DNA from: a virus
Lineage: Duplodnaviria > Caudoviricetes
DNA: 64,000 nucleotides
Reading direction: 5' to 3' (one strand)
Virus record (IMG/VR): IMGVR_UViG_3300027983_001732
Location: 1,035-65,034 of that record
The position numbers and the translations under genes were made by a program. The first letter of the stretch is position 1, and the number at the start of each line of letters is the position of its first letter. Under the pieces are notes generated by a model, which was not told the DNA's origin, searched no databases, and saw only the letters and a list, made by a program, of their open reading frames with translations. Positions 11,932-42,322 of this stretch are shown here, piece after piece.

Positions 11932-12408
11932 ATGAATAACTGTTTGCTTGTAAAAACCCCGGACAAGAGGAAGTTTCTTGTCAATGAAAAAAATATGCCG
12001 TCTATTATTGAATTTGTAAAAACGTTCCATGCAGAAGTGTATCAAGTGGAAGTATTAAAAGGCGAAATCATAAACCATCTAAAAAATCTCGCCGGTGCAA
12101 TATGTAACCTTGATTACAACACAGAAATGGATATCAAGATTATTGAGAAGATTTATCCAAAAAGCCGCCCAAGAAGCTCTATTTTGAATAATGCCAAAAA
12201 AATTAGAGAGTATATTTACGAAAAATTGTCAGAAGGAAATCCGGTATCGTTGAAAGACCTTAAGAAAAAATACAAAAATTGTGAAATTACCGACGCTTGT
12301 CTGTGTAATCACTTATCTGCCGTTAGAAAACAAATGGTAAGAAGCGGAAAACAAGTCAAGAAAATCGGTCAGGGGAATTATTGCTTGGTGGAGGCGAAGC
12401 TTTCTTGA
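11932..12408 (+). CDS. Hypothetical protein, possible C-terminal winged helix
   Basis: 158 aa basic ORF, GGGAG RBS. Confidence 0.55.
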   Translation: MNNCLLVKTPDKRKFLVNEKNMPSIIEFVKTFHAEVYQVEVLKGEIINHLKNLAGAICNLDYNTEMDIKIIEKIYPKSRPRSSILNNAKKIREYIYEKLSEGNPVSLKDLKKKYKNCEITDACLCNHLSAVRKQMVRSGKQVKKIGQGNYCLVEAKLS

Positions 12409-12445
12409 TGAGGATGGTATCAAACTATATTTTTACTTACGAAAA

Positions 12446-12477
12446 AAGGCAGATGGTCAGTATTGACCATCTGCCTT
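12446..12477. terminator. Terminator hairpin between convergent genes
   Basis: 14-bp perfect stem AAGGCAGATGGTCA/TGACCATCTGCCTT, A-tract on left. Confidence 0.75.
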
Positions 12478-12496
12478 ACTATCGTAGAAAAGTATT

Positions 12497-13750: not shown

Positions 13751-13795
13751 AATAATAATAATATCCCTCTTAAAACAAGCTTTTAGTAAAAAAAT

Positions 13796-13822
13796 GAGGA
13801 GCGGACTACTCATCCGCTCCTC
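13796..13822 (-). terminator. Hairpin downstream of SSB gene
   Basis: GAGGAGCGGA/TCCGCTCCTC stem followed by T-tract on minus strand. Confidence 0.6.
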
Positions 13823-13834
13823 TTTAGAAAAGGT

Positions 13835-17019: not shown

Positions 17020-17027
17020 AAACAAAA

Positions 17028-17061
17028 AGAGTGTGACAGAAGTTTTCTTCTGTCACACTCT
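17028..17061 (-). terminator. Strong intrinsic terminator downstream of a solitary repeat
   Basis: 15-bp perfect stem AGAGTGTGACAGAAG/CTTCTGTCACACTCT followed by T-tract on minus strand. Confidence 0.75.
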
Positions 17062-17086
17062 CAGTTAGATGAAGGCACTTTCGAGA

Positions 17087-17122
17087 GTGCCTTGATACTA
17101 TCGTTACGAATAGCATAGGCAC
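17087..17122 (-). repeat. Solitary variant of the array repeat (family A)
   Basis: Minus strand GTGCCTATGCTATTCGTAACGATAGTATCAAGGCAC, 29/36 identical to the array repeat. Confidence 0.8.
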
Positions 17123-17265
17123 AAGTAATGACATCATGTCTAGCCGCAGTTGTGTCTAATTCTTGTCAATCAGACACATAACCCCCATCTTTCATACTAT
17201 AGTGACAACTATTCATATTATGTTTTAGTATTGAAATTTTCGACAAATTTTATTATACATAAGAT

Positions 17266-18054
17266 ATGGGAAATTTTAAAAAATTCATAGAATCAACTGG
17301 AATAGTCAGACACGATTTCAGCCATTTATCAAAAGATGAAAGATTAAAACAAGGAAAAGATATTGGAGAGAAATTTATTAAAGATGAACTTCTCAATCAC
17401 GGAATCAAAATCGTCACAGTCGATAACATGATGTCACTTGACACTAAGTTGAAAATTGACGGATACCTCAACGGAAATCCCAGCGAACCAGTTCAAATTA
17501 AATTGAGAAAAACTGGTCGAGGTAGTGATGATATAGCATATGAACTAATTCTTGGCTTTGATCCAAAACTGCCAGTTGCAGATCAATTAAACAATCCAAG
17601 AACACAAGGTCGTGATTACAAAGGACAATCTGTAAAACATTATTTTGTTATGAATCAAGATGAAACCCAAATATATCACATTCCAGCAGATATGCTAAAA
17701 ACAACAGCACTTGACGCTATAAAGCAAACTAGCGGAATAATCGACAGAGCGTTCAGAACGAAAAATGGTGTTGAAATAAGACCAACTACCGATAATAGTT
17801 CTGGCGTCTCAAAATTGATGGTTTTTATACCAGCAGAACGAGTCGCAAAAGAAGCATACACAGTGGGTCAAGGAAAAATCCAACCTACATTCGGTGCCAA
17901 CTCTGGACCTCACACATCAATGTCAAAGAAAGATTTCAATATAGCTGCCGCAGAAGAACGATTAAAGAATCTTCAAGCAAAACAAAAATTAGCTAATGAT
18001 TTTCGTAAACAAAAGCAGGCAACTCCTGCTCAAACTGATGTTGATATTTCATAA
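17266..18054 (+). CDS. Hypothetical protein, possible PD-(D/E)xK fold, with capsid-targeting-like N-terminus
   Basis: MGNFKKFIE start; KIDG...VQIK motif. Confidence 0.55.
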   Translation: MGNFKKFIESTGIVRHDFSHLSKDERLKQGKDIGEKFIKDELLNHGIKIVTVDNMMSLDTKLKIDGYLNGNPSEPVQIKLRKTGRGSDDIAYELILGFDPKLPVADQLNNPRTQGRDYKGQSVKHYFVMNQDETQIYHIPADMLKTTALDAIKQTSGIIDRAFRTKNGVEIRPTTDNSSGVSKLMVFIPAERVAKEAYTVGQGKIQPTFGANSGPHTSMSKKDFNIAAAEERLKNLQAKQKLANDFRKQKQATPAQTDVDIS

Positions 18055-18464
18055 TGCGTGTTCAAAATAGTTCGATAAACAGACATGTTCGGCACCTTTC
18101 TTTCGAACCAATAATTATCTTCTCCACGACCATGATAAATATTCTCAATTGCAGCAGCAACGGCTGGAGATCGTGACATGCCTGCATGACAATGAACTAA
18201 GAAACATTCTACCTGCGGCCACATCTCTTTGACAAAATCCAAAATTTGCTTAGCCTTCTGTGCGTCAAATATCAACTCAGGAGGCGTTGTTGGTCGAGGA
18301 AAATCAATGTCTTCAAATGACATGTTTAATAGACCAACCCGATTCTCTTTAGAAAGAATCGGGTTTTCGCCTACATTGTCAACAATGCTAATGCCTGCCC
18401 ATGGCACAGAACATACAAACTTGCGAGCATCCGAAAGTGATCTTACTTCAATGGACCTTCTCAT
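18030..18464 (-). CDS. Protein tyrosine/dual-specificity phosphatase-like protein
   Basis: VHCHAGMSRS (CX5R). Confidence 0.8.
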   Translation of the reverse strand: MRRSIEVRSLSDARKFVCSVPWAGISIVDNVGENPILSKENRVGLLNMSFEDIDFPRPTTPPELIFDAQKAKQILDFVKEMWPQVECFLVHCHAGMSRSPAVAAAIENIYHGRGEDNYWFERKVPNMSVYRTILNTHYEISTSV

Positions 18465-19009
18465 TATCTAAAATTTCTTTCTAGCATGTGTTGAAAGCCT
18501 TTTGCTGATTTTGTCAATTCCGGCTTTATTGTAATTGGCTTTGTGTTTCTAACACTAGCAGACAACTCAATCGTTATTTTTGATCCACCACGATATGGTT
18601 CAACTTTGATTACTGTTTTTTGGTCTTCAATCAATCCACTATGAACTTCAATAAGTTTTGAACTGTAATTGTAAGTGTCTCCAGAATCAGAAGAGGATTC
18701 ACGCACTGTGAATTCCATCATACCTTTTTGTGTATCTTGTCTTAATCGTATATTGTCTCCATCCTTAGAAATTATTTCTCCGCCAGTTGATCTAGCGACT
18801 TCCTTTGGATGAGCCTTTAGCCATGTTGAGACAACACTTGGTTTTTCTCTAACTTCAAATTCTTTTGCGTGCCATGATTCTCCACCAAACGATGTAGATG
18901 TCACAAAAAATACGGCTACTACTGTGATTATTCCTTTAAGCATTTTTGTACCTGTAATTTGAAAACGAAAAGAGACCATACTGTTAACACAACAAGCATA
19001 GTCTCTCAT
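18464..19009 (-). CDS. Hypothetical exported protein
   Basis: Signal-peptide-like MLKGIITVVAVFFVTSTSFG; true start may be this downstream Met. Confidence 0.55.
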   Translation of the reverse strand: MRDYACCVNSMVSFRFQITGTKMLKGIITVVAVFFVTSTSFGGESWHAKEFEVREKPSVVSTWLKAHPKEVARSTGGEIISKDGDNIRLRQDTQKGMMEFTVRESSSDSGDTYNYSSKLIEVHSGLIEDQKTVIKVEPYRGGSKITIELSASVRNTKPITIKPELTKSAKGFQHMLERNFR

Positions 19010-19049: not shown

Positions 19050-19084
19050 GTGCATAAAAGCTGGGAATTCCCAGCGATTTGCAC
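19050..19084 (-). repeat. Solitary repeat-like unit, family B
   Basis: Minus strand GTGCAAATCGCTGGGAATTCCCAGCTTTTATGCAC; matches the 28788 and 41707 copies. Confidence 0.75.
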
Positions 19085-19225
19085 AAAGAATGAACAAACT
19101 TCCTCATTAGCCTTCCTCTCTGCAATCCAGCTTGAAACATCATTGAGGTTAGTCTCATAACTATTCGAATTGGCAGATGACGGACTTAAACATATCTACA
19201 CTTATGAATTACATAATTTAAGAAA

Positions 19226-19261
19226 GTGCCTTGATTCTATCCTATTGAATAGCATCAGTAC
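19226..19261 (-). repeat. Solitary near-perfect array repeat (family A) overlapping the uvsY stop codon
   Basis: 35/36 identity; TGA stop at 19255-19257 lies inside the repeat. Confidence 0.92.
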
Positions 19262-19797
19262 ATCGCAGAACGTAAGTCATCTGCGAATCCGCCTTTTTCA
19301 TCTTCACTATAAGACTTGATTGTTTCTGAAATCAAATCATCATTAACTCCGCTGTGCATGTAACCTTTGCCACCCATGATGTCACTATTGAGCTTATCCA
19401 TCATCTTGCGTTGCATGTGCCCCAAACTCTGAGCGTTGTCGTGATTCTTGTCCCAAGCACGCAAATGTTGCTTCAATCTATTGACAGCATATTTTGCATC
19501 ATTAACTTTCTCTTTAAAAGCCACAACATCTGGATCAGCCTTTGCCTTTGCTTCAGCTAACTTGTCACTGCCGCCAGACTCCTTTGCTTCAATAAATCGA
19601 TCAGCCGACAGTTTTTCATGGCGTAATTCGAAGTTCTGTAAATTCTTCTCAGCTAATGAGAGATAAGCTCCGAAATTGTCGTAGTAACCAGCTTCAGTCT
19701 GAATATATTGAGACAGATTGTTTTCATTGAAACGAAGGTTTTCTGGATCAATTTCAACAATAACTCCTGCAAACTCTAACTTCTCTTTTCTTGACAT
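19255..19797 (-). CDS. UvsY-like recombination mediator
   Basis: Helical protein with SDKLAEAKAKADPDV pattern, downstream of helicase in a UvsX/gp32 context. Confidence 0.55.
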   Translation of the reverse strand: MSRKEKLEFAGVIVEIDPENLRFNENNLSQYIQTEAGYYDNFGAYLSLAEKNLQNFELRHEKLSADRFIEAKESGGSDKLAEAKAKADPDVVAFKEKVNDAKYAVNRLKQHLRAWDKNHDNAQSLGHMQRKMMDKLNSDIMGGKGYMHSGVNDDLISETIKSYSEDEKGGFADDLRSAMY

Positions 19798-21386: not shown

Positions 21387-21486
21387 TTATACCTCTTCTT
21401 TAACTAGGCTTGTTAGCCGAGATATTACAGAAAAGTCTGAATTTCGTCTAGTCAGCTTGAATAAGAAATCTGAACTGTGCAGGCAA

Positions 21487-23355
21487 GTGCCTTGATTCTA
21501 TCCTATTGAATAGCATCAGCACAAGAAAAATCGGTCTTTTAGTGCCTTGATTCTATCCTATTGAATAGCATCAGCACTTGTTCTTTTTGTGGCTCTTCTG
21601 CCAACGTACTTTGCGTGCCTTGATTCTATCCTATTGAATAGCATCAGCACAGTAAGTCTGATTCGTGCCTTGATTCTATCCTATTGAATAGCATCAGCAC
21701 TTTTGACACTTGATGACTTACTGGTCTCTTGCTGGTGCCTTAATTCTATCCTATTGAATAGCATCAGCACGAGGATCAAAGACCTTTGTGAGATCAAAGG
21801 TTTCAAGTGCCTTGATTCTATCCTAGCAATTTGACCGCTGTCGTCGGTTGCTTTGTGCCTTGATTCTATCCTATTGAATAGCATCAGCACCAAACCCTTT
21901 TTTGACATCACTAACTGGTGCCTTGATTCTATCCTATTGAATAGCATCAGCACACCCGAGTCTTCAGTGGACACGTGCCTTGATTCTATCCTATTGAATA
22001 GCATCAGCACCGAGGGGCAATTTTTCACCGTTTGTCGGCAATCAAAGTGCCTTAATTCTATCCTATTGAATAGCATCAGCACCTGATTTCAAGATTCGAA
22101 TCTTGTCCAGTGAGTAACGTGCCTTGATTCTATCCTATTGAATAGCATCAGCACATGAATTTAACTGTTCTTGTCGTGTCATTGTGTCTAGTGCCTTGAT
22201 TCTATCCTATTGAATAGCATCAGCACAAAATAGAAGTGAGTTCCCCGACCTGTAGTGACTTCCGTGCCTTGATTATATCCCATTGAATAGCATCAGCACT
22301 TGTGAGGGAAGAAGACTCAAATCTTATCTGACAAGTGCCTTGATTCTATCCTATTGAATAGCATCAGCACTGTTACTAACCGACACTCAACAAGCGGAGT
22401 CAAATGTGCCTTGATTCTATCCTATTGAATAGCATCAGCACCTCATTGCCGCCGTCAGGGTGATAGGTGCCTTGATTCTATCCTATTGAATAGCATCAGC
22501 ACTGGTGTGTGTATTCCAGAAGAGAGAGGTTGAGAGGAGTGCCTTGATTCTATCCTATTGAATAGCATCAGCACCGTTGGTTCTATTTGTGTTTTTGACC
22601 AACTCAAGAGTGCCTTGATTCTATCCTATTGAATAGCATCAGCACGTGATCAATTGCTCAAAGTAGGCAGTTGGCTGTGAGTGCCTTGATTCTATCCTAT
22701 TGAATAGCATCAGCACTTTAGTGTCTGACCTTTCCAGTGTGTATATCTGCTGTGCCTTGATTCTATCCTATTGAATAGCATCAGCACACAATTCCGTTTC
22801 CGCACATCCACGCAAACCTGTTGGTGCCTTGATTCTATCCTATTGAATAGCATCAGCACGCTTGTCGCTCAAGTTCTCTGATCTCATCAGGATAGTGCCT
22901 TGATTCTATCCTATTGAATAGCATCAGCACGTGTATCCACCTGCTGATAAATCTCCAGTTTCTAGTGCCTTGATTCTATCCTATTGAATAGCATCAGCAC
23001 TTTTTCTGCTGGTGCGTCCGAAATTAACCCCCCAGTGCCTTGATTCTATCCTATTGAATAGCATCAGCACGTATACCCCCCAAAACTCAAAGCGTATGTC
23101 CTTTGTGCCTTGATTCTATCCTATTGAATAGCATCAGCACTGCTGGTCACACAGACAGCAGCAGTTAAGTTTGTGAGTGCCTTGATTCTATCCTATTGAA
23201 TAGCATCAGCACATCTTGACGATCGTTTTCTTTACGAGACGCTTGCTGTGCCTTGATTCTATCCTATTGAATAGCATCAGCACCTCTAAGACAGCAAAAC
23301 TTATCTTTCCTTCAGAGCCGTGCCTTGATTCTATCCTATTGAATAGCATCAGCAC
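21487..23355 (-). CRISPR. CRISPR array: 28 repeats (one truncated), 27 spacers; sense repeat GTGCTGATGCTATTCAATAGGATAGAATCAAGGCAC
   Basis: 36-nt repeats counted by hand; most spacers 34-37 nt; shortened spacers mostly at the cas-distal end; starts 65 nt after the cas12h stop. Confidence 0.98.
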
Positions 23356-23420
23356 TGCTGTCTTCGTAAGTCCAATCAGCCAAACAACATAAACATTCAA
23401 AAATCATGCACGTGGCACAA

Positions 23421-26186
23421 CTAAGCCGTATGATCTTTCAAAATCGTTTTAAAGTCAACGTCTTTTGTCGTAAGTGCTTTAGCACCAACATCTTTTGAAG
23501 AATCATGCACCTCTGGTAAGGCAAAATTGTTGTATCTTCCATCTGGATCACATGTTACGTCAAATTCTTGGCAATTCGGCTTCTCCACGGCTAATTGCTT
23601 GATTTTGTTTACCATCTCGTTGTGCAGTTCGCAAGTAACAATACAAGAGGAATGTGCATAAACAAACTGGTTAATCAATCGAGTTTGAGTGCTATCAATT
23701 TTTTTTGCAAATGTAACTCGACCTCTATCATCCGAAACAAATTTAGGGACAGAAGAACCGTACTTCAAATTGAAAAATCTCTTAATACGCTTGCCAATGG
23801 CTTCTTCAGGTTTCTTAATCGCATTGATGCTATCCTGAGTGGAATTCGGCTTATTTTCATATTCCTTGACATAGAATTTGTATGGACAAACAGAATGGTT
23901 TAAACCTTGAATCAAAATATTCATCGTGGCAGCCAGATCTGAATCAATCCAACCCAATTGTTTGTCTCTGACAACATACAACCTAGATTTGTTTTTGTCA
24001 TCACGCCATCCGGGATTGGAAGTAACAGGATCGCTTTGTGAAGTGCCATTCTTGGCGACTTTTACAAAACCAACTCCAATTTTTTCAAGAGCTTCTATAA
24101 TGTATTTTAATAATGTCGCCGCCGAAAACAAACGCAACAAAGCATTGTTGTTTTTGTCTGAATCAAATATGAAATCAAGATCTTCTCCAAACACAACATT
24201 ACAATCTTTCATTTCATTGGCAATCTTTGACGCAAGTTGTCTCAAAACAAAATTTCTGAAATTTGCTCTGCTTTTATCAAACTTTGCGACTTTTACCAGT
24301 TTTTCTCCCGATTTCAAATGAATTCTATTATAAGATTCAGCCATTGAAGCACACTGATCCATAGCCTCAATCAAACGAATATTATCTGCACAATCACGAT
24401 ATCCTCCAGAACGCATCTCAAACTTAATTTTTCTCAAGCGAGAATTGATTTTTTTAACCCATGACTGAATTAAATATCGAGTTGAAGAAGATTTTGTGTC
24501 TCCACATAAAATCAAAAAATCACGAGTGTCTTCACCCACATGTTCTTTAACTGCGTTAGAAACTTTAAATTCTCTGATTGCTCCAATAACACGTCTGGCA
24601 TCGTCTCTGATTTCTATCAAATTTTTGATTCTTGGACCATTTGCCACCAACATGAATGGTTTTTTAATGAGATTCCCTGAACCATAATCTAAAGCGTTTA
24701 ACTGTCCGCTTTTGTCGTCACGATAAACAACTGCTTTAACGGCAGCGACAGGATTTGACACATTCAGATCAATAGCTCCGACGACTATTTTGTCAGGAAG
24801 ATTCTCTACATTTTCTTTCTTTGGACAAGCCGACATAAAAAATTCTGCAATTTTGAAGTTTTTCTCGTCGTGATGAATCGAATAAGGGAGTGATACAAAA
24901 AACCCAGAATCTGTATTACGCAAACCAATCTCTTTAAGAACCCCAGAAATTTTATCTCCTGTATGAGATGCTGCTTTTACGGCCTTCTTGCCTTTACTTA
25001 TCGACTTATGACAGAAATTCAAAGAATAACCAGTACGACCATTTTTATTCCTAATTTCATCAAAAACAATACCGCTGAAATAACAAGATGCAGCACACCT
25101 TATGACTCCGACACCGACGATTTCAATAAGCACATCGCCAGAATCTTCAACTGACACAGTGAAGTTTCCTAGAGATCCCTGCCCTACAGGAACTTTATAG
25201 TCATTTCTATTTGGATCGAAACAAGGATACAATTTTCTTTTTTCTAACTGTTTCTTTGTCCTCCAGCAAGAATAAGCTGACATAATTTCTGAATATGATG
25301 ATTCAATCAGAATCCTGTATTTATTCTTCTTAAGTTCTTTAACAGCAAGTCTGATATCTGTTTTTTCTCCAGTTCCTTTTTTTACATGATCTATGCCTTT
25401 TGTCAAAACATACTTTGTGAGACCTGAATTTTTCGATTCTAATTCTGCTGCAAAACAACAAATAGAATCATAAACAGGCCCTTGTTTATCATTCATCGAC
25501 AGTTTAATCTTTTCTGTTTCCAACAAATGGTTGTTGTACTTCTCGAAAATGGACCTCAAATCCCTGCCAACCATCTCTATGAGAATGCGACAATAATTAC
25601 AATCTCTTGAACGAATGCAAGACAATCCAAATGCCAATCTGAGATCCACTCCTAGCGATCTTTCAATTGATGCCAATCTGGGAGACACTTCCGCCCAAAT
25701 TTCAGGCAGTGGTAAATTTTTAACTCCATATTCCAACCATTCTTCAATGCAAATTTGAGAAAGTTGTTCATCGGTCTTGAAGTATTCTTTAATCTTGTTT
25801 TCATCGAGCAAAGGCAAGGCTGACAAAAAATCATTCTTTTTTTGTGTTAATTTAGCCTTCCCCAGAGACTTGTAATTTCTATAGAAAACATTGTAACAAG
25901 AAGAAGCATTTTCACCTCCTTTAAGAAGAAGTTCAATAAAACTAACTGCCAACTGTTCTTTTTTGGCGTCACCGATTGTTAATGATCTCAATCTTTCGGA
26001 TTCTTCTTTAGATGTGTAAAACACTTCATCTTCGGCATTTGTGCCATAGCCAATTGCCATCCACCCAAAAAATAAATTCAAAAAAGAACGGTAGTCCGAC
26101 TGTAAATCTGCATACCACTGCATGACTTCTTCAGCAGTATTCTTTGCCTTAAGGTTTCCGGTTCGAATAAAAGATCTTGTAGCCAT
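23421..26186 (-). CDS. cas12h: Type V CRISPR effector, Cas12h-like (subtype V-H), about 921 aa
   Basis: RuvC motifs GAIDLN, VFGEDL, IDSDLAA; segments WYADLQ, LKGGxxxSSCY, ALDYGxG, GLNHSVCPY resemble Cas12h1 as recalled from memory; adjacent array with GTGCTG...GCAC repeat; start at MATRS after an AAAGGGA RBS. Confidence 0.85.
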   Translation of the reverse strand: MATRSFIRTGNLKAKNTAEEVMQWYADLQSDYRSFLNLFFGWMAIGYGTNAEDEVFYTSKEESERLRSLTIGDAKKEQLAVSFIELLLKGGENASSCYNVFYRNYKSLGKAKLTQKKNDFLSALPLLDENKIKEYFKTDEQLSQICIEEWLEYGVKNLPLPEIWAEVSPRLASIERSLGVDLRLAFGLSCIRSRDCNYCRILIEMVGRDLRSIFEKYNNHLLETEKIKLSMNDKQGPVYDSICCFAAELESKNSGLTKYVLTKGIDHVKKGTGEKTDIRLAVKELKKNKYRILIESSYSEIMSAYSCWRTKKQLEKRKLYPCFDPNRNDYKVPVGQGSLGNFTVSVEDSGDVLIEIVGVGVIRCAASCYFSGIVFDEIRNKNGRTGYSLNFCHKSISKGKKAVKAASHTGDKISGVLKEIGLRNTDSGFFVSLPYSIHHDEKNFKIAEFFMSACPKKENVENLPDKIVVGAIDLNVSNPVAAVKAVVYRDDKSGQLNALDYGSGNLIKKPFMLVANGPRIKNLIEIRDDARRVIGAIREFKVSNAVKEHVGEDTRDFLILCGDTKSSSTRYLIQSWVKKINSRLRKIKFEMRSGGYRDCADNIRLIEAMDQCASMAESYNRIHLKSGEKLVKVAKFDKSRANFRNFVLRQLASKIANEMKDCNVVFGEDLDFIFDSDKNNNALLRLFSAATLLKYIIEALEKIGVGFVKVAKNGTSQSDPVTSNPGWRDDKNKSRLYVVRDKQLGWIDSDLAATMNILIQGLNHSVCPYKFYVKEYENKPNSTQDSINAIKKPEEAIGKRIKRFFNLKYGSSVPKFVSDDRGRVTFAKKIDSTQTRLINQFVYAHSSCIVTCELHNEMVNKIKQLAVEKPNCQEFDVTCDPDGRYNNFALPEVHDSSKDVGAKALTTKDVDFKTILKDHTA

Positions 26187-26224
26187 TGATGTCCCTTTGA
26201 GTTGTTGATTGTAATCAAACAATC

Positions 26225-27505
26225 TTAAAGAACACAATCAATGTTGTCAACTCGAATCACATCAGAATTATCCTGTGTTAACTGAGCAAGGATTTCTGCA
26301 TATTTTAACCCAACATTTTGCCATGAGTTTTCTGTAACAAAGTTTTTTGATTTCTGTAACAATGAGTTCCTGTAATCTCCAGATGTGAATACTTTAGCGA
26401 TCTCATCAGCTAATTCTTCTGGATTGCTTGGTCGTGGAACAACTCCATCGAGATCATCAAACAAATGACAGTCACTAGCGATCACGGGAATGCCATTTGA
26501 CATCGCCTTGCGAATCGCACCAGATGCCCCATAAACCGTATTCTTCGGATCGTTCTTGTATGGGAAGACCGCCAACTTAGCAGTCCTCAAGAAGTTCTGC
26601 ATGTGCTGCTCAGACAAATAGCCACGCAACACAACTACGTTATCTTGTAACCCTTTCTTTTCAACTAGATCTCTAATCTCATTGTAATATCGAGCCTGAA
26701 TTGAACGTGTGTGATTGCTCTCGCTGCACAAGAAACAATAAAATATATCCTTAAACTCTTCTGATCTGTTCTTCAATATACTTACAGCCTCTATTGCACA
26801 ATCAAGACCTTTATAATCAAAACCAAACCCAAATTGAATAATCGTGCGTTCGTTTTGAAATATATTCCACAATTGCTGTGTGTTTTCATATAAGTTGCAA
26901 CCATGCGGCAAAACAAAAACTTCATTACGATGACCCAGCCTCTCCAAACATATTTTTCCATTTGGATTATGAGTAATGATGTTTTTGATATAAGAAGTGC
27001 AAATTGTTTTATCAAGATGCTCATAAACCGAATGCAAAGTAATCACATAAGGAATGTTATTAAACATTTCAAGTAATTTAAGGAAATGAGTGGCTTTTGG
27101 AAAAATTCCAAATTCATGTTGGATGAATATTATGTCTGGACCATAATCAATGATCTGTTGAGCTAAATCAATGCAACTCTGCCCACGTTTCCAACAGCGT
27201 TCAACATCATCATGAGCACCTTCCATAGTTTCTGCAAATATCTTGACTTCTTTGACATGTTTGCGAAGTTCTGGAATTAGTTGCTCGCTATAAGTTGCGA
27301 TTCCACATTGATCGCCCCAATTACAGATCCCGGCAACCTTCAGTTTACTCAACGGCTTTGCATTTCCTACAACAACCTTCTTTCCGACCAGAGACTTGTT
27401 TTCTTCCAAGCCCGGCACATAAATGGTTTTGTTGCCGCCGATACGAATGGCTTTATCTTTAGAAACCGCCTGTATCATTCCTGCTTGATTGATCGAAACG
27501 TACAT
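26225..27505 (-). CDS. GT4-like glycosyltransferase
   Basis: CGIATYS, IQHEFGIF, FGFGFDYKG, SGAIRKAMSNGIPVIAS. Confidence 0.85.
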   Translation of the reverse strand: MYVSINQAGMIQAVSKDKAIRIGGNKTIYVPGLEENKSLVGKKVVVGNAKPLSKLKVAGICNWGDQCGIATYSEQLIPELRKHVKEVKIFAETMEGAHDDVERCWKRGQSCIDLAQQIIDYGPDIIFIQHEFGIFPKATHFLKLLEMFNNIPYVITLHSVYEHLDKTICTSYIKNIITHNPNGKICLERLGHRNEVFVLPHGCNLYENTQQLWNIFQNERTIIQFGFGFDYKGLDCAIEAVSILKNRSEEFKDIFYCFLCSESNHTRSIQARYYNEIRDLVEKKGLQDNVVVLRGYLSEQHMQNFLRTAKLAVFPYKNDPKNTVYGASGAIRKAMSNGIPVIASDCHLFDDLDGVVPRPSNPEELADEIAKVFTSGDYRNSLLQKSKNFVTENSWQNVGLKYAEILAQLTQDNSDVIRVDNIDCVL

Positions 27506-28466
27506 ATTTTAGGCTTTCCCGCAATAACTTTTCTTGTGATTTTTTAGCTTGTATTAATTCTGGTTTTTTATCTGAAATCATTTCATTCACAAGAACTTTC
27601 AATTGAGAAGAGCCAAAACTCCAATAAGAAAGACCGAAATTTTCCAAGCCACAAGTATTTAGGAATGATTCATTTTTATCATGATGCAATAAATCAATAA
27701 AAGGTGTGTCGGATAAAATACTAAAAATTGTTGAGTGCAAACGAGTGCTAATTACAACATCACAAGCTGCAATGACATCAAGGGTCTGTTGGACAGACAA
27801 TCTTTCGTAAATTGAAAGGTTTTTCTTCCAAAACTTGCAACGACTTGAAATTAACCCGTTTGTTACCCTGTCGTCATAAGGAGCACCGGTAGACATGGGA
27901 AAAAATACAAAACTAGCTGGAGTCGAATCAGCTACCGCAGCAATATCTTGAGCAGCTTTATTCAATGTAAGAAAATCTCTGGCAAGCTGTGCGTCCTTAG
28001 CTTGCCCTAAATGCCCGTTAAGAACAACTCCTACGACTTTTGAATAAAGATCGATCTTGTTCTCTGAAAACATCGTCTGCAACAAATCTTTTCCTGCGGA
28101 TGGGTTTGGTTGAAGGCAAAAAGCCGAATCAGCCCCCAAATAACAAGGAACGTCATTATCTCTTAAAAGCTGATATGAGGATTTATCACGAACAACAATG
28201 CCGTCAAATTCTTTAAGAAGTGAGAATGGTGAGTGATTATTTGCAGATGCGGAAAAGACATATCTCTTTTCAACCTTAGCATCAAGTGCAATGCGAACAT
28301 AACTCTCAGATAAAATGTTTCCGCCGCCGAGAATACAAACATCAGCGGTCCCAGTATCATTGAACACAAAATCGTATTCAGGAAACAGCATTGGAAATGT
28401 AAGTTTGTAGCTTTCATCGCCAATATTGAATTTTCCATAAAAGCCAACTACCATTACTTTTTTCAT
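27459..28466 (-). CDS. Polysaccharide pyruvyl transferase family protein
   Basis: GFYGKFNIGD, LGGGNIL, VRDKSS, STRLHSTI. Confidence 0.85.
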   Translation of the reverse strand: MKKVMVVGFYGKFNIGDESYKLTFPMLFPEYDFVFNDTGTADVCILGGGNILSESYVRIALDAKVEKRYVFSASANNHSPFSLLKEFDGIVVRDKSSYQLLRDNDVPCYLGADSAFCLQPNPSAGKDLLQTMFSENKIDLYSKVVGVVLNGHLGQAKDAQLARDFLTLNKAAQDIAAVADSTPASFVFFPMSTGAPYDDRVTNGLISSRCKFWKKNLSIYERLSVQQTLDVIAACDVVISTRLHSTIFSILSDTPFIDLLHHDKNESFLNTCGLENFGLSYWSFGSSQLKVLVNEMISDKKPELIQAKKSQEKLLRESLKYVRFDQSSRNDTGGF

Positions 28467-28484
28467 GAAAACTCCGACGATTAA

Positions 28485-28775
28485 TCAAACAAACTCGGCG
28501 ATCCATTTCACATACGTACTTTCTGAGGTAATATTGGCAATCACGACAAAACCTTCTGGTGTGTTGTGTGTACTAATCATATTAACTTGACCAAGACAGC
28601 ACTGTATTCCCTCATGATTGTCTAGGTTTAACCATACATTACGTGGCTGTTGTGTTGTTGGAACAAACACCTCACTCCATCCATGACTAAGTTCCAAAGA
28701 TCCTTTTTCGTGCGGATAGTCTCGATATGGAACCATAACACGCACAATTTCAACCGGTCTTCTAATTCCGCCCAT
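28485..28775 (-). CDS. Hypothetical protein
   Basis: ATG at 28775 after a GGGGGA RBS; the ORF-track extension upstream is the family B repeat. Confidence 0.55.
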   Translation of the reverse strand: MGGIRRPVEIVRVMVPYRDYPHEKGSLELSHGWSEVFVPTTQQPRNVWLNLDNHEGIQCCLGQVNMISTHNTPEGFVVIANITSESTYVKWIAEFV

Positions 28776-28787
28776 CAGTCCCCCTAT

Positions 28788-28881
28788 GTGCCATAAAAGC
28801 CGGGAATGCCCAGCGATCTGCACTGTTTGTTATAGTTTAAAATTACTAAAAAAATAGTAATAAATGCCCAGCGATCTGCAC
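28788..28881 (-). repeat. Family B unit: full 36-nt copy (28788-28823) plus 5' half copy (28863-28881), 39 nt apart
   Basis: GTGCAGATCGCTGGGCATTCCCGGCTTTTATGGCAC; the first 19 nt are repeated exactly upstream. Confidence 0.8.
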
Positions 28882-28936
28882 TATTTTCTGCAATATACAA
28901 TCGAAATAATTCTTCTTGTTTTATATAAACATAGCA

Positions 28937-29512
28937 TTATATAGCATTATTGGCTAAATAATCATAGTCCGAAAGCGAAACCAATCCAGTTCTCCAAGAC
29001 TTTTCTCTCGTGATTTTTTTGCCTAGAGACTTTTGGGCATTCCAAATGATTTGTTTGCAATAAGTTGTAAATTTTAGATCCAAATTGAGGACTTTATCTC
29101 GCTTTGGTCGCTCTTTCTCTGGAACGTACTTATTAACTAATTGATCAAGAATGATTTGCTGATGCAGACCAAATTTCTGACGATTAGCTCCATGACGACG
29201 ACGATTTTCCCACAAAATTGTCAGCTCGATAAAAACTTTCATAATGAACTTATCTTTGATGTATTTGTTAAGAACATCAAAACAGCTTTCGATATATGTC
29301 TGCCTTTTGTAATAGCTGCCCGCCCTGACTAAGGCAATTCTTAGCTCTTGAACATCGTCATCTGGGTCATTGACATTGGCGTTATTGGCATTTTTTCTTT
29401 TGAGTTCCCATGCTGCATAATGCGCCAATTTTCCGAACTTTTTATCCAAAACCTCATATTCCGAATCTGTAATCGGAAATAAATTCATAATATTTTCAAG
29501 CGTTCCTAACAT
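28937..29512 (-). CDS. Sigma-factor-like protein (possible late sigma, gp55-like)
   Basis: Region-2-like DDDVQELRIALVRA and KFTTYCKQIIWN; no region 4 evident. Confidence 0.5.
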   Translation of the reverse strand: MLGTLENIMNLFPITDSEYEVLDKKFGKLAHYAAWELKRKNANNANVNDPDDDVQELRIALVRAGSYYKRQTYIESCFDVLNKYIKDKFIMKVFIELTILWENRRRHGANRQKFGLHQQIILDQLVNKYVPEKERPKRDKVLNLDLKFTTYCKQIIWNAQKSLGKKITREKSWRTGLVSLSDYDYLANNAI

Positions 29513-30872: not shown

Positions 30873-30939
30873 ATCTTATCAGATCAGAGATTCCGAAACT
30901 ACCCTGAATCAATTAAATACTTTGTAACTTATCTCAGTC

Positions 30940-30976
30940 GTGCCTTGATCCTGATCCTGTTGAATGGCATAAGAAC
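30940..30976 (-). repeat. Solitary degenerate array repeat (family A) upstream of the polymerase gene
   Basis: Minus strand GTTCTTATGCCATTCAACAGGATCAGGATCAAGGCAC; 5 substitutions and 1 insertion relative to the array repeat. Confidence 0.75.
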
Positions 30977-31059
30977 CTTCAGTCCATAAGGGATGCCATG
31001 GTTGTGATCATAATAGATATAAAAAATAAAATCACTTTATATTTCCTTAAGTAATAAGG

Positions 31060-31432
31060 CGATTTACAAAGTGCGTGCATTCTCTACACCCAGTGAAAAT
31101 GACTCTCACTGCGTCTATTATGATACAACTTGAAGTTGTTTTAATTGATGGTAGTTGTGCTTCACACTTGGGTGATTCCCAAGTGATAATCACGAATCTC
31201 CTAACCAGATGACCTGCTCGTAGCCCCGGCAGCCGCTTTAAAAAGCAGAACGAGCATTCATGGCATCGCCGGGTTTAGTGATCTGGATTACCTAGATTCT
31301 TGACACAAGACGCTGAGTTCCCTAAACTCGTCCGGTTGCGGTAAGACCTACCCGCTGTCAAGGTTTTTCGCCGGATTTCAAGTGACCATCTGACCTGAAA
31401 TACCCGACCTGTTAATTTGAAAGTAGCTTCAA
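31060..31432 (-). ncRNA. Candidate structured non-coding RNA or long leader
   Basis: No ORF; many inverted repeats; GC-richer than flanks; downstream of a sigma70-like promoter. Confidence 0.4.
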
Positions 31433-31437
31433 CTCTA

Positions 31438-31466
31438 ATCTTATCAAGTTAACTTAAAGAAAGCAA
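31438..31466 (-). promoter_or_regulatory. Sigma70-like promoter with extended -10
   Basis: TTGCTT-N17-TAAGAT with TGn immediately before the -10. Confidence 0.55.
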
Positions 31467-31555
31467 GACCTTTTCTGTAAAAAGATCCATTGTTATAAAC
31501 TTTTAAAACAGATACAGTACATGCTCACAAGCATAAATATGAAAATTCTTTAATT

Positions 31556-31591
31556 GTGCTGATGTTATTCAGCAGGATTGCATTAATGCAC
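31556..31591 (+). repeat. Solitary array-repeat variant (family A) containing the RBS and start codon of the next gene
   Basis: GTGCTGATGTTATTCAGCAGGATTGCATTAATGCAC, 29/36 identity; ATG at 31586. Confidence 0.75.
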
Positions 31592-32314
31592 AGATACGAC
31601 GCTATTTTTGAATGGAATATGACTTCTCCAGAGACCGAAGCCTTTAAATTGGCTGTTCTTTATGAGCAAGAATTCTTAAGATTGTTCGAAGGAACAGAAG
31701 AAATTGATGGACAAGGGTTCAGAAGAAATACAATTCCAAAACGTGGAGACCCTCGAAAGTCAGATTTGTTTCGCCAATGCTGGAAACTCCGTCGAGAAAC
31801 AAGAGGTTTGTTAACAGGAGAGCAGTACGTTAATTATGTTAAGGCTAATTTGGCGATATTGAAGATCAACAAATCTCATGTTTCTCCCAATGCCATTTGC
31901 GGAGACAAAGCGTGGATTAGATGGAAGGTTTGGGAAAGATGGTACACTCAAAAAATGAGCGAAAAATCTTGTGTCGCACCACCACCATCTGTATCGACCA
32001 CAGATCCGAAGATCATTCGAGAAATTGATAGAACGAAAAAGTTTTTGTTCGAAAAATGTGATGGAGAACCATCATCTGAAAAAATTCGTGGATTCATGGA
32101 AAATGGATTTTTTAAACTTTGGATTGTTTCTGGCAAGGCTTCAATCTATTATGTTATGATGTCTCCATATGCCCAACCATTCATCAATGATTTAGCTCAA
32201 TCGTGTTCTTTTGACCCTCCAGTGTTTCGAGAAAAAATAACTTCTGAAGTAAGGGATTACTTTCATTATGAGTTCAATCACGAGTTTGACAGAATTCGGC
32301 TCCCTTCAAATTGA
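31586..32314 (+). CDS. Hypothetical phage protein
   Basis: 242 aa from ATG 31586; AGGA upstream within the repeat. Confidence 0.65.
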   Translation: MHRYDAIFEWNMTSPETEAFKLAVLYEQEFLRLFEGTEEIDGQGFRRNTIPKRGDPRKSDLFRQCWKLRRETRGLLTGEQYVNYVKANLAILKINKSHVSPNAICGDKAWIRWKVWERWYTQKMSEKSCVAPPPSVSTTDPKIIREIDRTKKFLFEKCDGEPSSEKIRGFMENGFFKLWIVSGKASIYYVMMSPYAQPFINDLAQSCSFDPPVFREKITSEVRDYFHYEFNHEFDRIRLPSN

Positions 32315-37340: not shown

Positions 37341-39548
37341 ATGAGATTCTACGAATTCCACCAAATTGTTAAATCAGAAAATCCGCCAGCACTCAAGCTG
37401 CAATGGGACTATAACGCCGATACGTTCCGATCATGGCTTATGTCTGAAGTTACTAAGGATATTGTCAGGGAATTGGAATCGTGGAAAGATGAAAATCCAG
37501 ACGAACTGCCATTTCATGGACTATTTCCTGCTGAAAATGATGAGTCAATCACCCGGAAAGTCATTCCATTCACCGCTGATCCAAACGCAACAGGAATTTT
37601 AGATAAAATCAAAAACGCTGGACTCACTATCGACTTCAAAACAGGTACAGTGAGCAATGGACAACGTGCTAATCGCTTAGGTAAATTCGTATTAAACAAA
37701 AACTCTCCGTTCTCATCAGAAGAAAAGATTTGGTGGAACCGTAGCGGTGAACCGGTGCCAGAACTTCAAAGAACACAAAGCACTCACCAATACTCAATAG
37801 TTGTATCTCGCAATCCTGTTGATATTGCTCGCATGTCAGATCATGACGGATGGACATCATGTCATTCTCCAAGTCGTGAATATTTTCAATGTGCCTTAGC
37901 TGACGCTAAAGGTGGTGGGGCAGTAGCTTACGTCGTTAGAAAAGATGATCTAGCTGGCATTGACCTCCAAGAGCCAGAAATCTTTTCAGATAAAAGACGG
38001 GGAGTCAGTGGCGTAAACCCCATGTCCAGAGTGAGACTACGCAAATTCGTTCATAAAGAAGATGGATATGATCTCGCAGTTCCCGAAAATGTCGTTTATG
38101 GAGAAAAATTCCCCGGACTAGCCGATAGCGTAAGAGATTGGGCATTACAGTCTCAACAAGATATTCTAAAAGGTCAAAGAGTCCGTATGAAGGATTTCCG
38201 ATTAATGGGCGGCAGCTACCAAGACACAAGAGGAAGCCGTTTATTTAACTATCTATTTGACGATGAACTCGATACTGGAGATGCTGATTACGGCGGCGAG
38301 GATGAAGGACAAGGAATGTTTGACCAATACGAAGAAGAAGTCGAAATAATTGAACAAGAATACAGAGATAAATTCACTATTTGTTCCTTTTATGTAGAAG
38401 TACACGACTCCGAAGGTCAACCATATGTTGATTTCAGCGGCACTGCATACATCAAAATTCCAGAAGAACTACTTCTGACACCACCAGATGAAGCAGATAA
38501 ATGGGACCCAAAATCTAAGCGACGACAACTCGATGAAGGTCTCAAAAAATGGGCCAGAGAAAACGACATCTATAATGTCAATGAAATTAAATTACTTGAT
38601 GACGGAGTGCGTATCGACATTTATTCTGATGACGACGATGCCACGCCAGATGGTTTTAGAAACTTCCTCAGACACAAACTCAGCGATATTGACGGCAGGA
38701 AAGATGAACTCACAGCCAGCTTGTATCACAAATTGGTCGAACTCGGATTAGCAACTGCAAATAAAGTCTCAGAAATTAATCTGGATGACGACAAGACTGA
38801 TGAAGAACATATATTCCAAAACTTTGAATGGCAAGGCGAAAGCCCAGAAATCTCAATAGCACTCAAGCAACCAATGGAACTACCATCGCCGCCAACACCA
38901 AAATCTGGCGCTGCCCCTCAACACGAATATCCACATTGGCAAGATCAATTCAAAAACACAGTCACACAACAAATCAAAGCGTGGGCGAATAGAGTTTTTG
39001 TCAATCAGAAACAACAATTATCGCTCTTTCCAGATGCGAATGACCATAAAAAACCATTTGAACTGCATATCAAACCTGAGATCGAACTGAAGTCAAGTCA
39101 GAGAATATGGGAACAAGGACAACCATTATTAATGTATATGACGCTTAAATTCGAGACATTCTCAGATGATGAACATGTTGAAGAAGCAATTAATTTCGTT
39201 AAGTTTTTAGATAAGAGCTTCCCTAAATTTGAGAGTATGATACATCAGATATACATGAATTGGAGCAAAAATTTTTACAGGTCGATCATGAATCAGCAAC
39301 AGTGGCAGCCTCAGCAAACTGGTAACTGGAACTCCACTGGGTTCTGGAATTCACAACAAGATTCTCAGTCACAACAAGCTCAGTCACAACAACAAGCTCA
39401 GTCACAACAACAAGCTCAGTCACAACAAGCTCAGTCACAACAACAAGCTCAGTCACAACAAGATTCTCAGTCACAACAAGATTCTCAGTCACAACAAGAT
39501 TCTCAGTCGAAAGGTACGAAAAAACATGACAAACATTCCATTGTTTAA
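37341..39548 (+). CDS. Large hypothetical phage protein with Gln/Ser-rich tail
   Basis: 735 aa; SRNPVDIARMSD..WTSCH motif. Confidence 0.7.
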   Translation: MRFYEFHQIVKSENPPALKLQWDYNADTFRSWLMSEVTKDIVRELESWKDENPDELPFHGLFPAENDESITRKVIPFTADPNATGILDKIKNAGLTIDFKTGTVSNGQRANRLGKFVLNKNSPFSSEEKIWWNRSGEPVPELQRTQSTHQYSIVVSRNPVDIARMSDHDGWTSCHSPSREYFQCALADAKGGGAVAYVVRKDDLAGIDLQEPEIFSDKRRGVSGVNPMSRVRLRKFVHKEDGYDLAVPENVVYGEKFPGLADSVRDWALQSQQDILKGQRVRMKDFRLMGGSYQDTRGSRLFNYLFDDELDTGDADYGGEDEGQGMFDQYEEEVEIIEQEYRDKFTICSFYVEVHDSEGQPYVDFSGTAYIKIPEELLLTPPDEADKWDPKSKRRQLDEGLKKWARENDIYNVNEIKLLDDGVRIDIYSDDDDATPDGFRNFLRHKLSDIDGRKDELTASLYHKLVELGLATANKVSEINLDDDKTDEEHIFQNFEWQGESPEISIALKQPMELPSPPTPKSGAAPQHEYPHWQDQFKNTVTQQIKAWANRVFVNQKQQLSLFPDANDHKKPFELHIKPEIELKSSQRIWEQGQPLLMYMTLKFETFSDDEHVEEAINFVKFLDKSFPKFESMIHQIYMNWSKNFYRSIMNQQQWQPQQTGNWNSTGFWNSQQDSQSQQAQSQQQAQSQQQAQSQQAQSQQQAQSQQDSQSQQDSQSQQDSQSKGTKKHDKHSIV
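39351..39508 (+). repeat. Coding tandem repeat of 15/18-nt units (SQQ(Q)AQ / SQQDSQ)
   Basis: CACAACAAG(ATT)CTCAGT-type units. Confidence 0.9.
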
Positions 39549-41224: not shown

Positions 41225-41704
41225 ATGATTGTTTTGAAAAAAATTATCTCGGGGGCACAGTCGGGGGCTGATTTAGCGGCATTAGAGGTCGCAAAGAAGT
41301 TTGGATATGAAACTGGCGGAGTCATGCCTTTTGGTTACAAAACTCTTGAAGGGTTTAAACCTCAGTATAAAGAGATGTACGGATTGACAGCCCATTCTTC
41401 CTCTAGTTATACCCCTCGTACTCGCCAGAATGTGAAGGATTCTGATGGCACTATCCGATTTGCATACAATTTTGAATCTCGTGGCGAGATTTGTACGTTG
41501 AAAGCCATAGAATATTACAAAAAACCTCATTTAAATGTGGATTTAAATGATGTTCTTCCGATTTTTACCGTTACAGACTGGATTTTGTGCCATAGAATAG
41601 AAGTGTTGAATATCGCAGGAAACTCCGAACAAACTTCTCCGGGCACTCATGAAGCCACAACTTGTTACTTAGAAAGTCTTTTTCAAGCTTTAAAGGACAA
41701 TTAA
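41225..41704 (+). CDS. SLOG-family (putative molybdenum carrier-like) protein
   Basis: IISGAQSGADLAAL, RTRQNVKDSDGT, LNIAGN. Confidence 0.75.
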   Translation: MIVLKKIISGAQSGADLAALEVAKKFGYETGGVMPFGYKTLEGFKPQYKEMYGLTAHSSSSYTPRTRQNVKDSDGTIRFAYNFESRGEICTLKAIEYYKKPHLNVDLNDVLPIFTVTDWILCHRIEVLNIAGNSEQTSPGTHEATTCYLESLFQALKDN

Positions 41705-41706
41705 CC

Positions 41707-41738
41707 CAGATCGCTGGGTATTCCCGGCTTTATGGCAC
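41707..41738 (+). repeat. Solitary repeat-like unit, family B
   Basis: CAGATCGCTGGGTATTCCCGGCTTTATGGCAC, at a gene junction in sense orientation. Confidence 0.75.
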
Positions 41739-42322
41739 ATGGAACACGGATGAATATGAACGAATTAGAAAAAAAATTGATTGTGTTAAGAGGGCTTCCG
41801 TGGACAGGCAAAAGTTATCGAGCAAAACAGTTGCTTGAAGAAGCTGCAAAGGATGGAATCCAAGGGTTGATTTTTTCAACTGATGATTATTGGCATCAGG
41901 TCAACTATCCTGACAAGCCTGATGAATATTCTTTCAACCCAAGATTTTTGGCTTATGCTCACAAGTGGAATCAACTTCGAGCACACCGTGCCATTGATAT
42001 TGGCGAAAAGCTCATCATTATTGACAACACTAATACTGTTGCTTCCGAGTTTTGTTGCGGATATGCAAAATATGCTCACTTTCAGGATTACAAAATTTGT
42101 ATTGAAGAGCCTACGTCAGAGCGGTGGCTTGAAATACGTGAAATATTGAAAAACAAACGAGCAAACAAAAAGTTGCTAAAAAATTGGGCTGTTACACTTG
42201 CTGAAGGAAGCAAGGGAATTCACAATGTTCCATTTTTTGCCATTGAACGAATGATGTGGAGATGGGAAAATAATTTAGATCCAGATTTTATATTAAACAA
42301 TTGCAAGGAACTGCATACATAA
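41732..42322 (+). CDS. P-loop kinase (AAA_33 / polynucleotide kinase-like)
   Basis: RGLPWTGKS, FSTDDYW, IIDNTN, HNVP. Confidence 0.8.
   Translation: MAHGTRMNMNELEKKLIVLRGLPWTGKSYRAKQLLEEAAKDGIQGLIFSTDDYWHQVNYPDKPDEYSFNPRFLAYAHKWNQLRAHRAIDIGEKLIIIDNTNTVASEFCCGYAKYAHFQDYKICIEEPTSERWLEIREILKNKRANKKLLKNWAVTLAEGSKGIHNVPFFAIERMMWRWENNLDPDFILNNCKELHT

Follow-up and report, generated by a model that had tools for sequence, protein, structure and literature searches.

Why should a bacteriophage that carries its own CRISPR (clusters of regularly interspaced short palindromic repeats) system also carry, scattered among its genes, single copies of a different CRISPR repeat? This question is raised by a 64,000-nucleotide (nt) stretch of DNA, here called the window, from the virus record IMGVR_UViG_3300027983_001732 (Duplodnaviria; Caudoviricetes) in the IMG/VR collection. 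The window is nearly the whole of this 65,034-base record, which is rated as 13% complete and should therefore be a fragment of a phage genome of roughly half a megabase. It encodes Cas12h, the effector of subtype V-H, followed directly by an array built of one repeat, family A. A second repeat, family B, is present in the window exclusively as solitary units, and none of its copies is in an array.

Family B and the array of a sister phage

Family B is very probably a real subtype V-H CRISPR repeat, whose array is found in a sister lineage at the very locus where this phage has cas12h and the family A array. In the window its degenerate core occurs at three sites, 19060-19084(-), 28799-28823(-) and 41704-41728(+), and in none of 100 shuffled sequences. 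A profile constructed from the three copies, designated B1, B2 and B3 (Table 1), recovers these and a half copy at 28863-28881(-), with no other match in the window.

A preliminary description made from the letters alone had recognized a second repeat family with a layout like that of family A and another stem, and this holds: the two families have 16 of 36 positions in common, clustered at the ends in the alignment, and their predicted fold is the same. Of the three positions given there for the copies, 28788 and 19050 are correct, while the third copy starts at 41704 and not at 41707. The layout of 9+6+4+6+11 nt with GTGC...GCAC ends fits B1. It does not extend to B3, which has lost the basal stem because its first four bases are ACCC instead of GTGC, nor strictly to B2 and B3, each of which is missing one base from the 3' tail and is hence 35 nt long. 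The variation of the loop (CATT, AATT and TATT across the copies) is as described, and so is a G/A change in the stem that keeps pairing, which in B2 at 19050 converts a U-G pair to U-A.

The origin of the repeat was revealed by a metagenome scan with the B core, which covered 241 million records and gave at least 119 loci. Among the 121 matches listed, only those in the contig L100 belong to full-length B, with three exact 36-nt copies that lie 72 nt apart and agree with B at 15/15 flank positions. The other 118 are lone hairpins with flanks agreeing with B at no more than 10 of 15 positions. On the minus strand of L100 a glycosyltransferase gene ends 20 nt before a 37-nt variant of B; a spacer of 21 nt separates this variant from the three exact repeats, between which lie two 36-nt spacers, and a DnaB-like helicase gene comes next. 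With its four B repeats and spacers of 21, 36 and 36 nt, the array has a period of 72 nt. L100 runs collinear with the window, with identities of 97.7% (glycosyltransferase), 88.7% (helicase region) and 83.7%, and its 316-bp array stands in place of window positions 21393-26208, the 4.8 kb that contain cas12h and the family A array. In contigs of the sequencing run X7 the end of the glycosyltransferase gene adjoins the same B array, and its three spacers are those of L100. The repeat B therefore belongs to a CRISPR array that a sister phage has at the homologous locus. The earlier suggestion that B is the repeat of another V-H-like system is thereby supported, the owner being a competitor phage.

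Two further observations were made on L100. The second spacer of its B array (3455-3490, -) is a 10-bp hairpin with GGGGATTCCC in the middle, which is similar to the central part of the B repeat; this is unusual for a spacer. Opposite positions 19223-19257, where the window has a solitary family A repeat, L100 (691-1160) has a degenerate repeat-like stretch ending in CCAAGGCAC and then an extra gene of ~130 amino acids (aa); gene content therefore differs right beside a solitary repeat.

A loose pattern of the ends shared by A and B, applied to IMG/VR, gave 110 chance-like single matches. One stood out, GTGCTGATGACCAGCCTTGGCTGGTCATCAAGGCAC, in the record G003. This unit, called type C, agrees with A at all 19 flank positions, but its upper stem differs and is fully paired. 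The virus record G003 has a length of 64.7 kb, with 60% G+C and 13% completeness, and encodes a Cas12h homologue (28% identity, E 3e-63). Its cas12h leads into an array with two repeats of a further type, D, after which come a Nudix-like open reading frame (ORF) and a DnaB-like gene; this is the cas12h/array/helicase order of the window, and the slot of the B array in L100 is the slot of cas12h and its array in both Cas12h phages. The cas12h homologue and its surroundings are at 823-3945(-) of L261 (G003:60756-64711), where the D array stays open in frame and runs into the Nudix-box ORF. Two other pattern matches in G003, at 61489 and 52253, were set aside; the former lies inside the DnaB-like coding sequence, codons 6-17 of which happen to fit the loose V-H end pattern.

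The predicted fold of types A, B, C and D is identical, ((((.(((.((((((....)))))).)))...)))). In A and B it rises from 4 bp at the base through a small, asymmetric interior loop and a short helix in the middle to an upper helix of 6 bp with a 4-nt loop. Covariation across eight sequences of the four types supports it, with standard pairs in 94 of 104 pair cells as opposed to 27-43% with slid partners, and each pair of the upper stem is represented by two to four pair types. Eleven positions (columns 1-4, 6, 30 and 32-36) are invariant over the four repeat types, and B keeps all of them. A strict descriptor (GTGC...GCAC ends, 35-37 nt, the 6-bp stem in place) matched only true elements in six sequences, at ~0.03 matches per genome in shuffles. 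The fold agrees with the published CRISPR RNA (crRNA) handle of Cas12h1, compared by its described shape. As described for the cryo-electron microscopy structure of Cas12h1, all 36 nt of the repeat are retained in the mature crRNA and form an elongated stem-loop that lacks a 5' flank; its first seven nt, G(-35) to G(-29), are held in a groove of the protein, and the spacer part is 26 nt long (PMC11830025).

Some features of the units would also suit a signal unrelated to CRISPR, such as a DNA-palindrome operator, an intrinsic terminator or a repeat of the REP (repetitive extragenic palindromic) or MITE (miniature inverted-repeat transposable element) kind. The centre of B2 is a perfect 16-bp palindrome and the units lie near gene starts. 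However, the consensus stem of B keeps a U-G pair, which is a T-G mismatch in DNA and a wobble pair in RNA; this pairing, together with the U-A pair of B2, points to a logic at the level of RNA rather than DNA, as far as can be judged from the sequences. The G+C-rich stem is followed by TTTTAT, and a consensus scan calls B1 terminator-like (one found versus 0.4 expected), but the T-run is partly paired within the long stem-loop and an efficient terminator 3 nt before a ribosome-binding site (RBS) would silence the gene it precedes. B furthermore has the length, ends and fold of a V-H repeat, and in the CRISPR slot of the sister phage it forms a regular array of 72-nt period with unique spacers. 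The preliminary description had named as its own refutation a REP-like or MITE element present in genomes lacking type V systems. No such element emerged: in 185,579 prokaryote species genomes (one for each species) the B core has 22 single chance matches, with flanks as in B at no more than 6 of 13 positions, and there is no B in IMG/VR beyond this record (two patterns) or in GenBank phages.

The solitary units and their surroundings

The units and the genes around them are listed in Table 1.

Table 1. Repeat units, CRISPR-Cas components and adjacent genes of the window
Feature	Coordinates	Strand	Evidence or remark
B1, full 36-nt unit GTGCAGATCGCTGGGCATTCCCGGCTTTTATGGCAC, identical to the array repeat of the sister phage	28788..28823	-	one exact match; 0/100 shuffles
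Half copy with the 5'-terminal 19 nt of B, made up of 5' flank, 5' stem arm and loop; lies 39 nt upstream of B1	28863..28881	-	profile, E 0.004
B2, 35-nt unit with perfect 16-bp palindromic centre, 40 nt upstream of ATG at 19009	19050..19084	-	core pattern and profile
B3, 35-nt unit with degenerate 5' end ACCC	41704..41738	+	core pattern and profile
181-aa gene downstream of B2	18464..19009	-	family match: none
P-loop kinase-like gene downstream of B3	41750..42322	+	domain search
96-aa gene, ATG at 28775, directly downstream of B1, heads the run toward cas12h	28485..28775	-	family match: none
Polysaccharide pyruvyl transferase gene	27459..28466	-	PF04230, 1e-21
Glycosyltransferase gene	26225..27505	-	3' end 97.7% identical to L100, where the B array comes next
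cas12h, 938-aa ORF	23421..26237	-	E 7.9e-191 versus Cas12h1 (PDB 8y9l), nearly full length; PADLOC Cas12h model, 1508 bits
CRISPR array of family A with 27 repeats, each 36 nt, period mostly 70-73 nt	21487..23355	-	directly downstream of cas12h
Solitary family A repeat, 1 mismatch, overlaps stop codon of gene 19255-19797, 141 nt upstream of B2	19226..19261	-	profile
Solitary A-like repeat, fold kept, strong terminator 24 nt on	17087..17122	-	profile and fold
Degenerate A-like unit upstream of DNA polymerase A gene	30940..30976	-	profile, E 1.1e-5
Degenerate A-like unit overlapping 5' end of first plus-strand ORF	31556..31591	+	profile

B1 precedes a closely spaced minus-strand run in which the 96-aa gene is followed by the pyruvyl transferase, the glycosyltransferase, cas12h and the family A array. 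The statement that the full copy ends just before the RBS of the gene leading into this run is accurate: its end is 3 nt from GGGGGA and 12 nt from the ATG at 28775. B3 overlaps the upstream gene's stop codon by one base, the last of the codon, and its end lies 11 nt before the in-frame ATG at 41750. The half copy upstream of B1 had also been identified correctly, and 'relic mini-array' is a fair description of the half and full copies together, although not in the sense of an old array decaying in place, to judge from the relatives. Searches of Pfam and PHROGs with the genes beside the solitary units gave nothing indicating an anti-CRISPR protein.

In a three-way alignment B2 is a clean insertion of ~36 nt in a well-conserved leader. 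Neither L100 nor L123, a more distant relative, has this insertion, and its two junctions show a direct match of 3-4 nt (TGTG / TGTA). At the B1 site, a sister-phage contig of run X7 matches the window to 28787, the base next to B1, and has 219 other letters in place of 28787-28977, while L123 has an ordinary terminator and RBS. At the B3 site G001, the source record of L123, has other intergenic sequence and no B3. No A or B unit is found in L123, in a further relative, L124, or in G001, no cas12h is present in L123, L124 or their whole records, and another record, G002, gives chance-level matches only to the shared-ends pattern. Since the outgroup relatives are without B at all three sites, the units are gains in this lineage and not old arrays decaying in place. 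In another sequencing run, X1, this phage is present at full identity, and one contig of the run has a further B copy with other flanks, followed in the B sense by AAGGAG.

In L123 the slot enclosed by the glycosyltransferase and DnaB genes (11216-14360) has no CRISPR part and is filled by four other ORFs, of 127, 363, 300 and 169 aa. Its differing content makes this slot a variable region of the phage group.

Solitary units are not restricted to family B. The window has four A-like ones (Table 1), and in G003 the type C unit lies 17.6 kb from the D array, 3 nt past a stop codon. Both Cas12h phages found have at least one solitary unit of a type other than that of their own array. An exact A repeat is found in G004, a 36.4-kb viral contig with 38% G+C, between the genes for tRNA-Phe and tRNA-Ser (L262 6675-6710; G004:26570-26605, -). 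G004 shows no DNA similarity to the window beyond the repeat, nor to G001-G003. Its repeat is part of a six-tRNA cluster, and the sequence after it has a T-arm-like stretch, for which ARAGORN makes no tRNA call. All ten solitary units (three B, the X1 copy, four A-like, C in G003 and A in G004) are in the sense of the neighbouring genes.

The surroundings of one A-like unit, 17020-17285(-), resemble a small RNA gene: sigma-70-like promoter matches at 17280-17252 and 17246-17217 are followed by the repeat (17122-17087) and by a terminator with a 16-bp stem (17062-17027). The 24 nt between repeat and terminator contain an inverted copy of the 3' end of the repeat, so that another hairpin can form at the expense of the repeat's basal stem (fold z-score -6.3).

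The family A system of the window looks active, judging from two of its spacers (22371-22405 and 23002-23034) that have matches in contigs of run X7 with non-repeat sequence on both sides. Each match is preceded in the crRNA sense by ATG. The same run also contains the sister phage with the B array. ATG is the protospacer-adjacent motif (PAM) in Cas12h1 assays (PMC11830025), and the X7 matches are likely to be natural targets with a Cas12h-type PAM. Other searches for spacer targets, with the 27 inter-repeat or trailer segments of the A array, the three L100 spacers and a trailer segment, and the single D spacer, gave only chance-level matches in the window, L100, L123, L124, G001, G003 and G004. 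The end of the A array close to the DnaB gene (21487-21975) is eroded, with spacers of 14, 19, 21, 25 and 27 nt, and an 84-nt gap at 21771-21854 holds a 19-nt 3' half repeat. Run X1 has a variant of the array without 22983-23101.

Cas12h itself appears to be rare. A search of a collection of 5.8 billion proteins gave three Cas12h proteins, including that of the window. An orthologue, P0002, is 71% identical to the Cas12h of this phage, and a contig of 108 kb carries the cas12h of the window. The window and G003 are the only two Cas12h phage records in the collections searched, where protein-pattern searches are insensitive. A search from the single protein gave no relatives in IMG/VR, and one from a three-sequence alignment gave none in IMG/VR or in the species genomes; these negatives are weak, because the homologue in G003, itself an IMG/VR record, was missed by the same method. 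A search of GenBank phages gave no relatives of Cas12h.

The minus strand carries the genes of the window as far as ~30.9 kb and the plus strand those beyond ~31.5 kb, and the GC skew flips there too. The divergent intergenic region has, at approximately 31150-31400, a G+C-richer stretch of ~250 nt without an ORF or an Rfam match, which is conserved in L123 (~6230-6440, -) at roughly the level of coding sequence and may be a structured RNA or an origin-related element. Rfam finds no family at gathering score in the window, only sub-threshold matches in 30900-31600. Tandem repeats of 18 nt (and mixed 15/18 nt) are present at 63730-63999, where they reach the window end, and at 39347-39532, inside a 735-aa ORF, where they encode a Q-rich run.

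Possible readings: decoys, scars or sites for the resident Cas12h

Solitary repeat units in viral genomes are described as RNA anti-CRISPRs (Racr), three of which act against type V-A systems (Camara-Wilpert et al. 2023, PMC10651486). By analogy, the B units are proposed to be Racr-type RNA decoys in a conflict between sister phages, a reading with appreciable chances, though somewhat short of even. The units are in leaders or between genes in the sense orientation and should therefore be transcribed within the phage mRNAs. The B RNA is predicted to fold into the 36-nt elongated stem-loop of the Cas12h crRNA handle and would thus mimic a crRNA. A B-recognizing Cas12h from a co-infecting sister phage would load these solitary handles and acquire, as its 'guide', the downstream sequence of the carrier phage itself. 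The DNA copy of this guide is flanked by the repeat end CAC and not by a PAM, and the loaded Cas12h would for this reason be harmless to the carrier and withdrawn from real crRNAs, which is the proposed inhibition.

The decoy reading is favoured by the presence of heterotypic units, B here and C in G003, by the identity of B1 with the repeat of the sister phage and by the Racr precedent. The sense-only orientation of the solitary units favours a role at the level of RNA, as a decoy or as a site for the phage's own Cas12h, over scars of recombination, although orientation is confounded with the direction of replication.

A number of results weigh against the decoy reading. The second cas12 that had been anticipated was not seen beside the B array: no cas12h adjoins it in L100 within the 4,062 of 24,689 contig bases read. 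The three B spacers of L100 have no match in the window. A promoter scan before B1 found no sigma-70-like promoter, and a search of sequencing runs gave eight DNA runs with matching sequence and no RNA runs. Two of the three B copies are partly degraded where a decoy needs to be intact, B3 in the 5' GTGC that is contacted by the protein in Cas12h1 and B2 in the 3' tail, which fits neutral decay equally. As all invariant positions are kept in B, the phage's own Cas12h may bind B too, and the decoy would then come at a cost to the phage that carries it. Solitary copies of type A, the type of the phage's own array, are left unexplained by a pure anti-competitor decoy model, and B1, unlike typical Racr loci, lies 2.5 kb upstream of cas12h in the same gene run.

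The units may instead be scars of recombination or escape without present function, which is possible but rather doubtful. A repeat would be copied from the B array of a co-infecting sister phage and then decay; for example, a spacer pairs with a protospacer and the adjacent repeat replaces the PAM, which also gives escape from that crRNA. Recombination of phage protospacers with array spacers occurs in staphylococcal phages. The units do form a graded series, with B1 perfect, B2 keeping the structure and B3 degraded at the 5' end, and the A-like solitary units range from one mismatch to barely recognizable; yet the fold of B2 is kept through a change that improves a pair. B2 is the insertion of a single unit with a junction match of 3-4 nt, and homology with the sister phage resumes at the first base after B1 (28787) and after an A-like unit (31592). 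On the other side, no known B spacer, of which there are only three, matches the sequence downstream of any B unit. Identity between the two phages is mosaic, 97% over 26220-28476 as compared with ~84% beside it, which shows recent exchange, and the half repeats and shortened spacers within the array show that rearrangement at the level of repeats takes place there. The 10/10 sense orientation would not be expected from strand-neutral repair, but the strand of the genes and the GC skew both change over near 31 kb, which ties orientation to the direction of replication.

It is unlikely, though not negligibly so, that the units are sites for the resident Cas12h. This enzyme would recognize the invariant ends and the shape, and bind both A-like and B units on phage mRNAs. 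After a cut at the 5' edge of the unit, Cas12h would stay on the leader and either control the translation of the next gene or make a hard-wired guide, in which the first 26 nt of the gene are aimed at relatives without the insertion. From the end of B1 the RBS is at +4 and the ATG at +13, and the ATG after B3 is at +12. B1, at the head of the run that contains cas12h, would tie the 96-aa gene, the pyruvyl transferase, the glycosyltransferase and cas12h to the level of Cas12h; however, an A-type unit would be expected at this position and a copy identical to the repeat of the sister phage is found instead. In favour of recognition, B keeps the 11 positions that are invariant among repeats of Cas12h proteins as distant as 28% identity, which makes discrimination between A and B by a single Cas12h doubtful, and A and B differ at one position within the first seven nt, where the published contacts are. 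Solitary units of the phage's own type A are kept, one of them followed after 24 nt by a strong terminator like a small RNA gene, and an exact A repeat is present inside the tRNA operon of G004, a viral contig of the same GC content. V-H loci are described as having no adaptation module (PMC11830025), so that fixed guides would be valuable to them.

The guide version of this reading fares less well. The sequence after the unit at 31556 has a homologous site in L123 that is identical at 25 of 26 positions and preceded by GTG, but this match is in conserved coding sequence and the unit itself no longer folds. At the B2 site the sister sequence has TTC where the PAM would be and is mismatched at guide position 4, and no downstream 'guide' has a partial match elsewhere in the window above chance. 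Self-derived guides were set aside, as only this one of four testable sites combines a PAM-like GTG with a near-perfect match.

A bolder reading, in which solitary V-H repeats are insertable Cas12h handles capable of homing and of making spacers without adaptation, is a long shot. A repeat placed before a conserved gene start would let the phage's own Cas12h use the first 26 nt of the gene as a guide. The carrier, with the repeat end in the place of the PAM, would be safe, and siblings without the insertion would be nicked at that site, upon which repair from the carrier would copy the repeat into them. The least credible of all is a repeat, operator or terminator unrelated to CRISPR, of which the REP/MITE and operator forms are largely refuted by the array elsewhere, the V-H fold and the lack of dispersed copies.

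Comparison with known repeat-derived elements

Like Racr, the B units are single repeat mimics in intergenic positions of a viral genome, with the repeat fold kept. Some Racr are co-transcribed with protein genes, one unit being on a bicistronic RNA with such a gene, and the V-A examples are validated (PMC10651486). The B units differ in that the mimicked system is a phage-borne V-H system in a sister phage and not one in the host, that the carrier phage encodes a Cas12h itself, paired with another repeat, and has one unit in the cas12h gene run, and that there are several copies, some partly degraded. The SRUFinder rule, as given in the same paper, takes a unit as solitary when it lies in an intergenic region of a mobile element, is at least 90% identical to a known repeat and has no second repeat within 100 bp. 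B2 passes with three substitutions and one deletion relative to the L100 repeat, and B3 falls below 90%; B1 is identical to the repeat, but has the partial copy 39 nt away and would be classed with mini-arrays. Racr are also defined as not associated with cas genes, while cas12h lies 2.5 kb downstream of B1, next to an array of a different repeat.

Viral mini-arrays are described as having repeats identical to those of a host system and spacers against related viruses (PMC11656645). The four-repeat B array of the sister phage, without an adjacent cas gene, and the half and full copies of the window resemble them, but here no host V-H system is known and no B spacer matches the window.

With the Cas12h1 handle and other V-H elements the repeats share a length of 36 nt, a single elongated stem-loop made of the whole repeat, a conserved 5' end, spacers of ~36 nt and, for the A spacers, the ATG PAM. 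B differs in not being in an array within the window, and its use by Cas12h is putative. A likeness to the crRNA-like regulatory RNAs (crlRNA, CreR and tracr-L) may also be seen, in that expression could be coupled to the effector through a repeat-like unit lying upstream of the cas gene run. The crlRNA types are described as acting through a spacer that partly matches a promoter, whereas the 36 nt after each of eight units have only chance matches of up to 12 nt in the window.

Solitary repeat units as such are already known, and were reportedly first listed by Faure et al. in 2019. The B units are set apart from them by a cognate system that is a phage-borne V-H system with no known host counterpart, by a carrier with a Cas12h and a different repeat of its own, and by one unit at the head of the gene run that contains cas12h. 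The main text of the Racr paper (PMC10651486) has nothing on subtype V-H, the mini-array review (PMC11656645) does not name it either, and among the papers listed by full-text searches on Cas12, Cas12h or solitary repeats no title or abstract opening describes solitary V-H repeats, supplementary lists being outside this scope. The 2025 paper on the Cas12h1 structure, in the parts that concern its origin, only suggested that it comes from phages (PMC11830025).

Cas12h is a rare effector whose natural carrier was not previously known, and here it is found in a fragment of a huge phage together with a live-looking array of 27 repeats. Two sister phages, which differ at precisely the CRISPR locus, are connected by the stray B units. 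If the units are decoys, repeat mimicry would operate also between CRISPR-carrying phages and not only between phage and host; if they are scars, they would be a record of repeats copied out of arrays, which bears on the origin of solitary repeat units. In either case, the four co-varying repeat types separate the 11 fixed positions of the V-H handle from the parts that can be freely changed, which is useful for the engineering of Cas12h guides.

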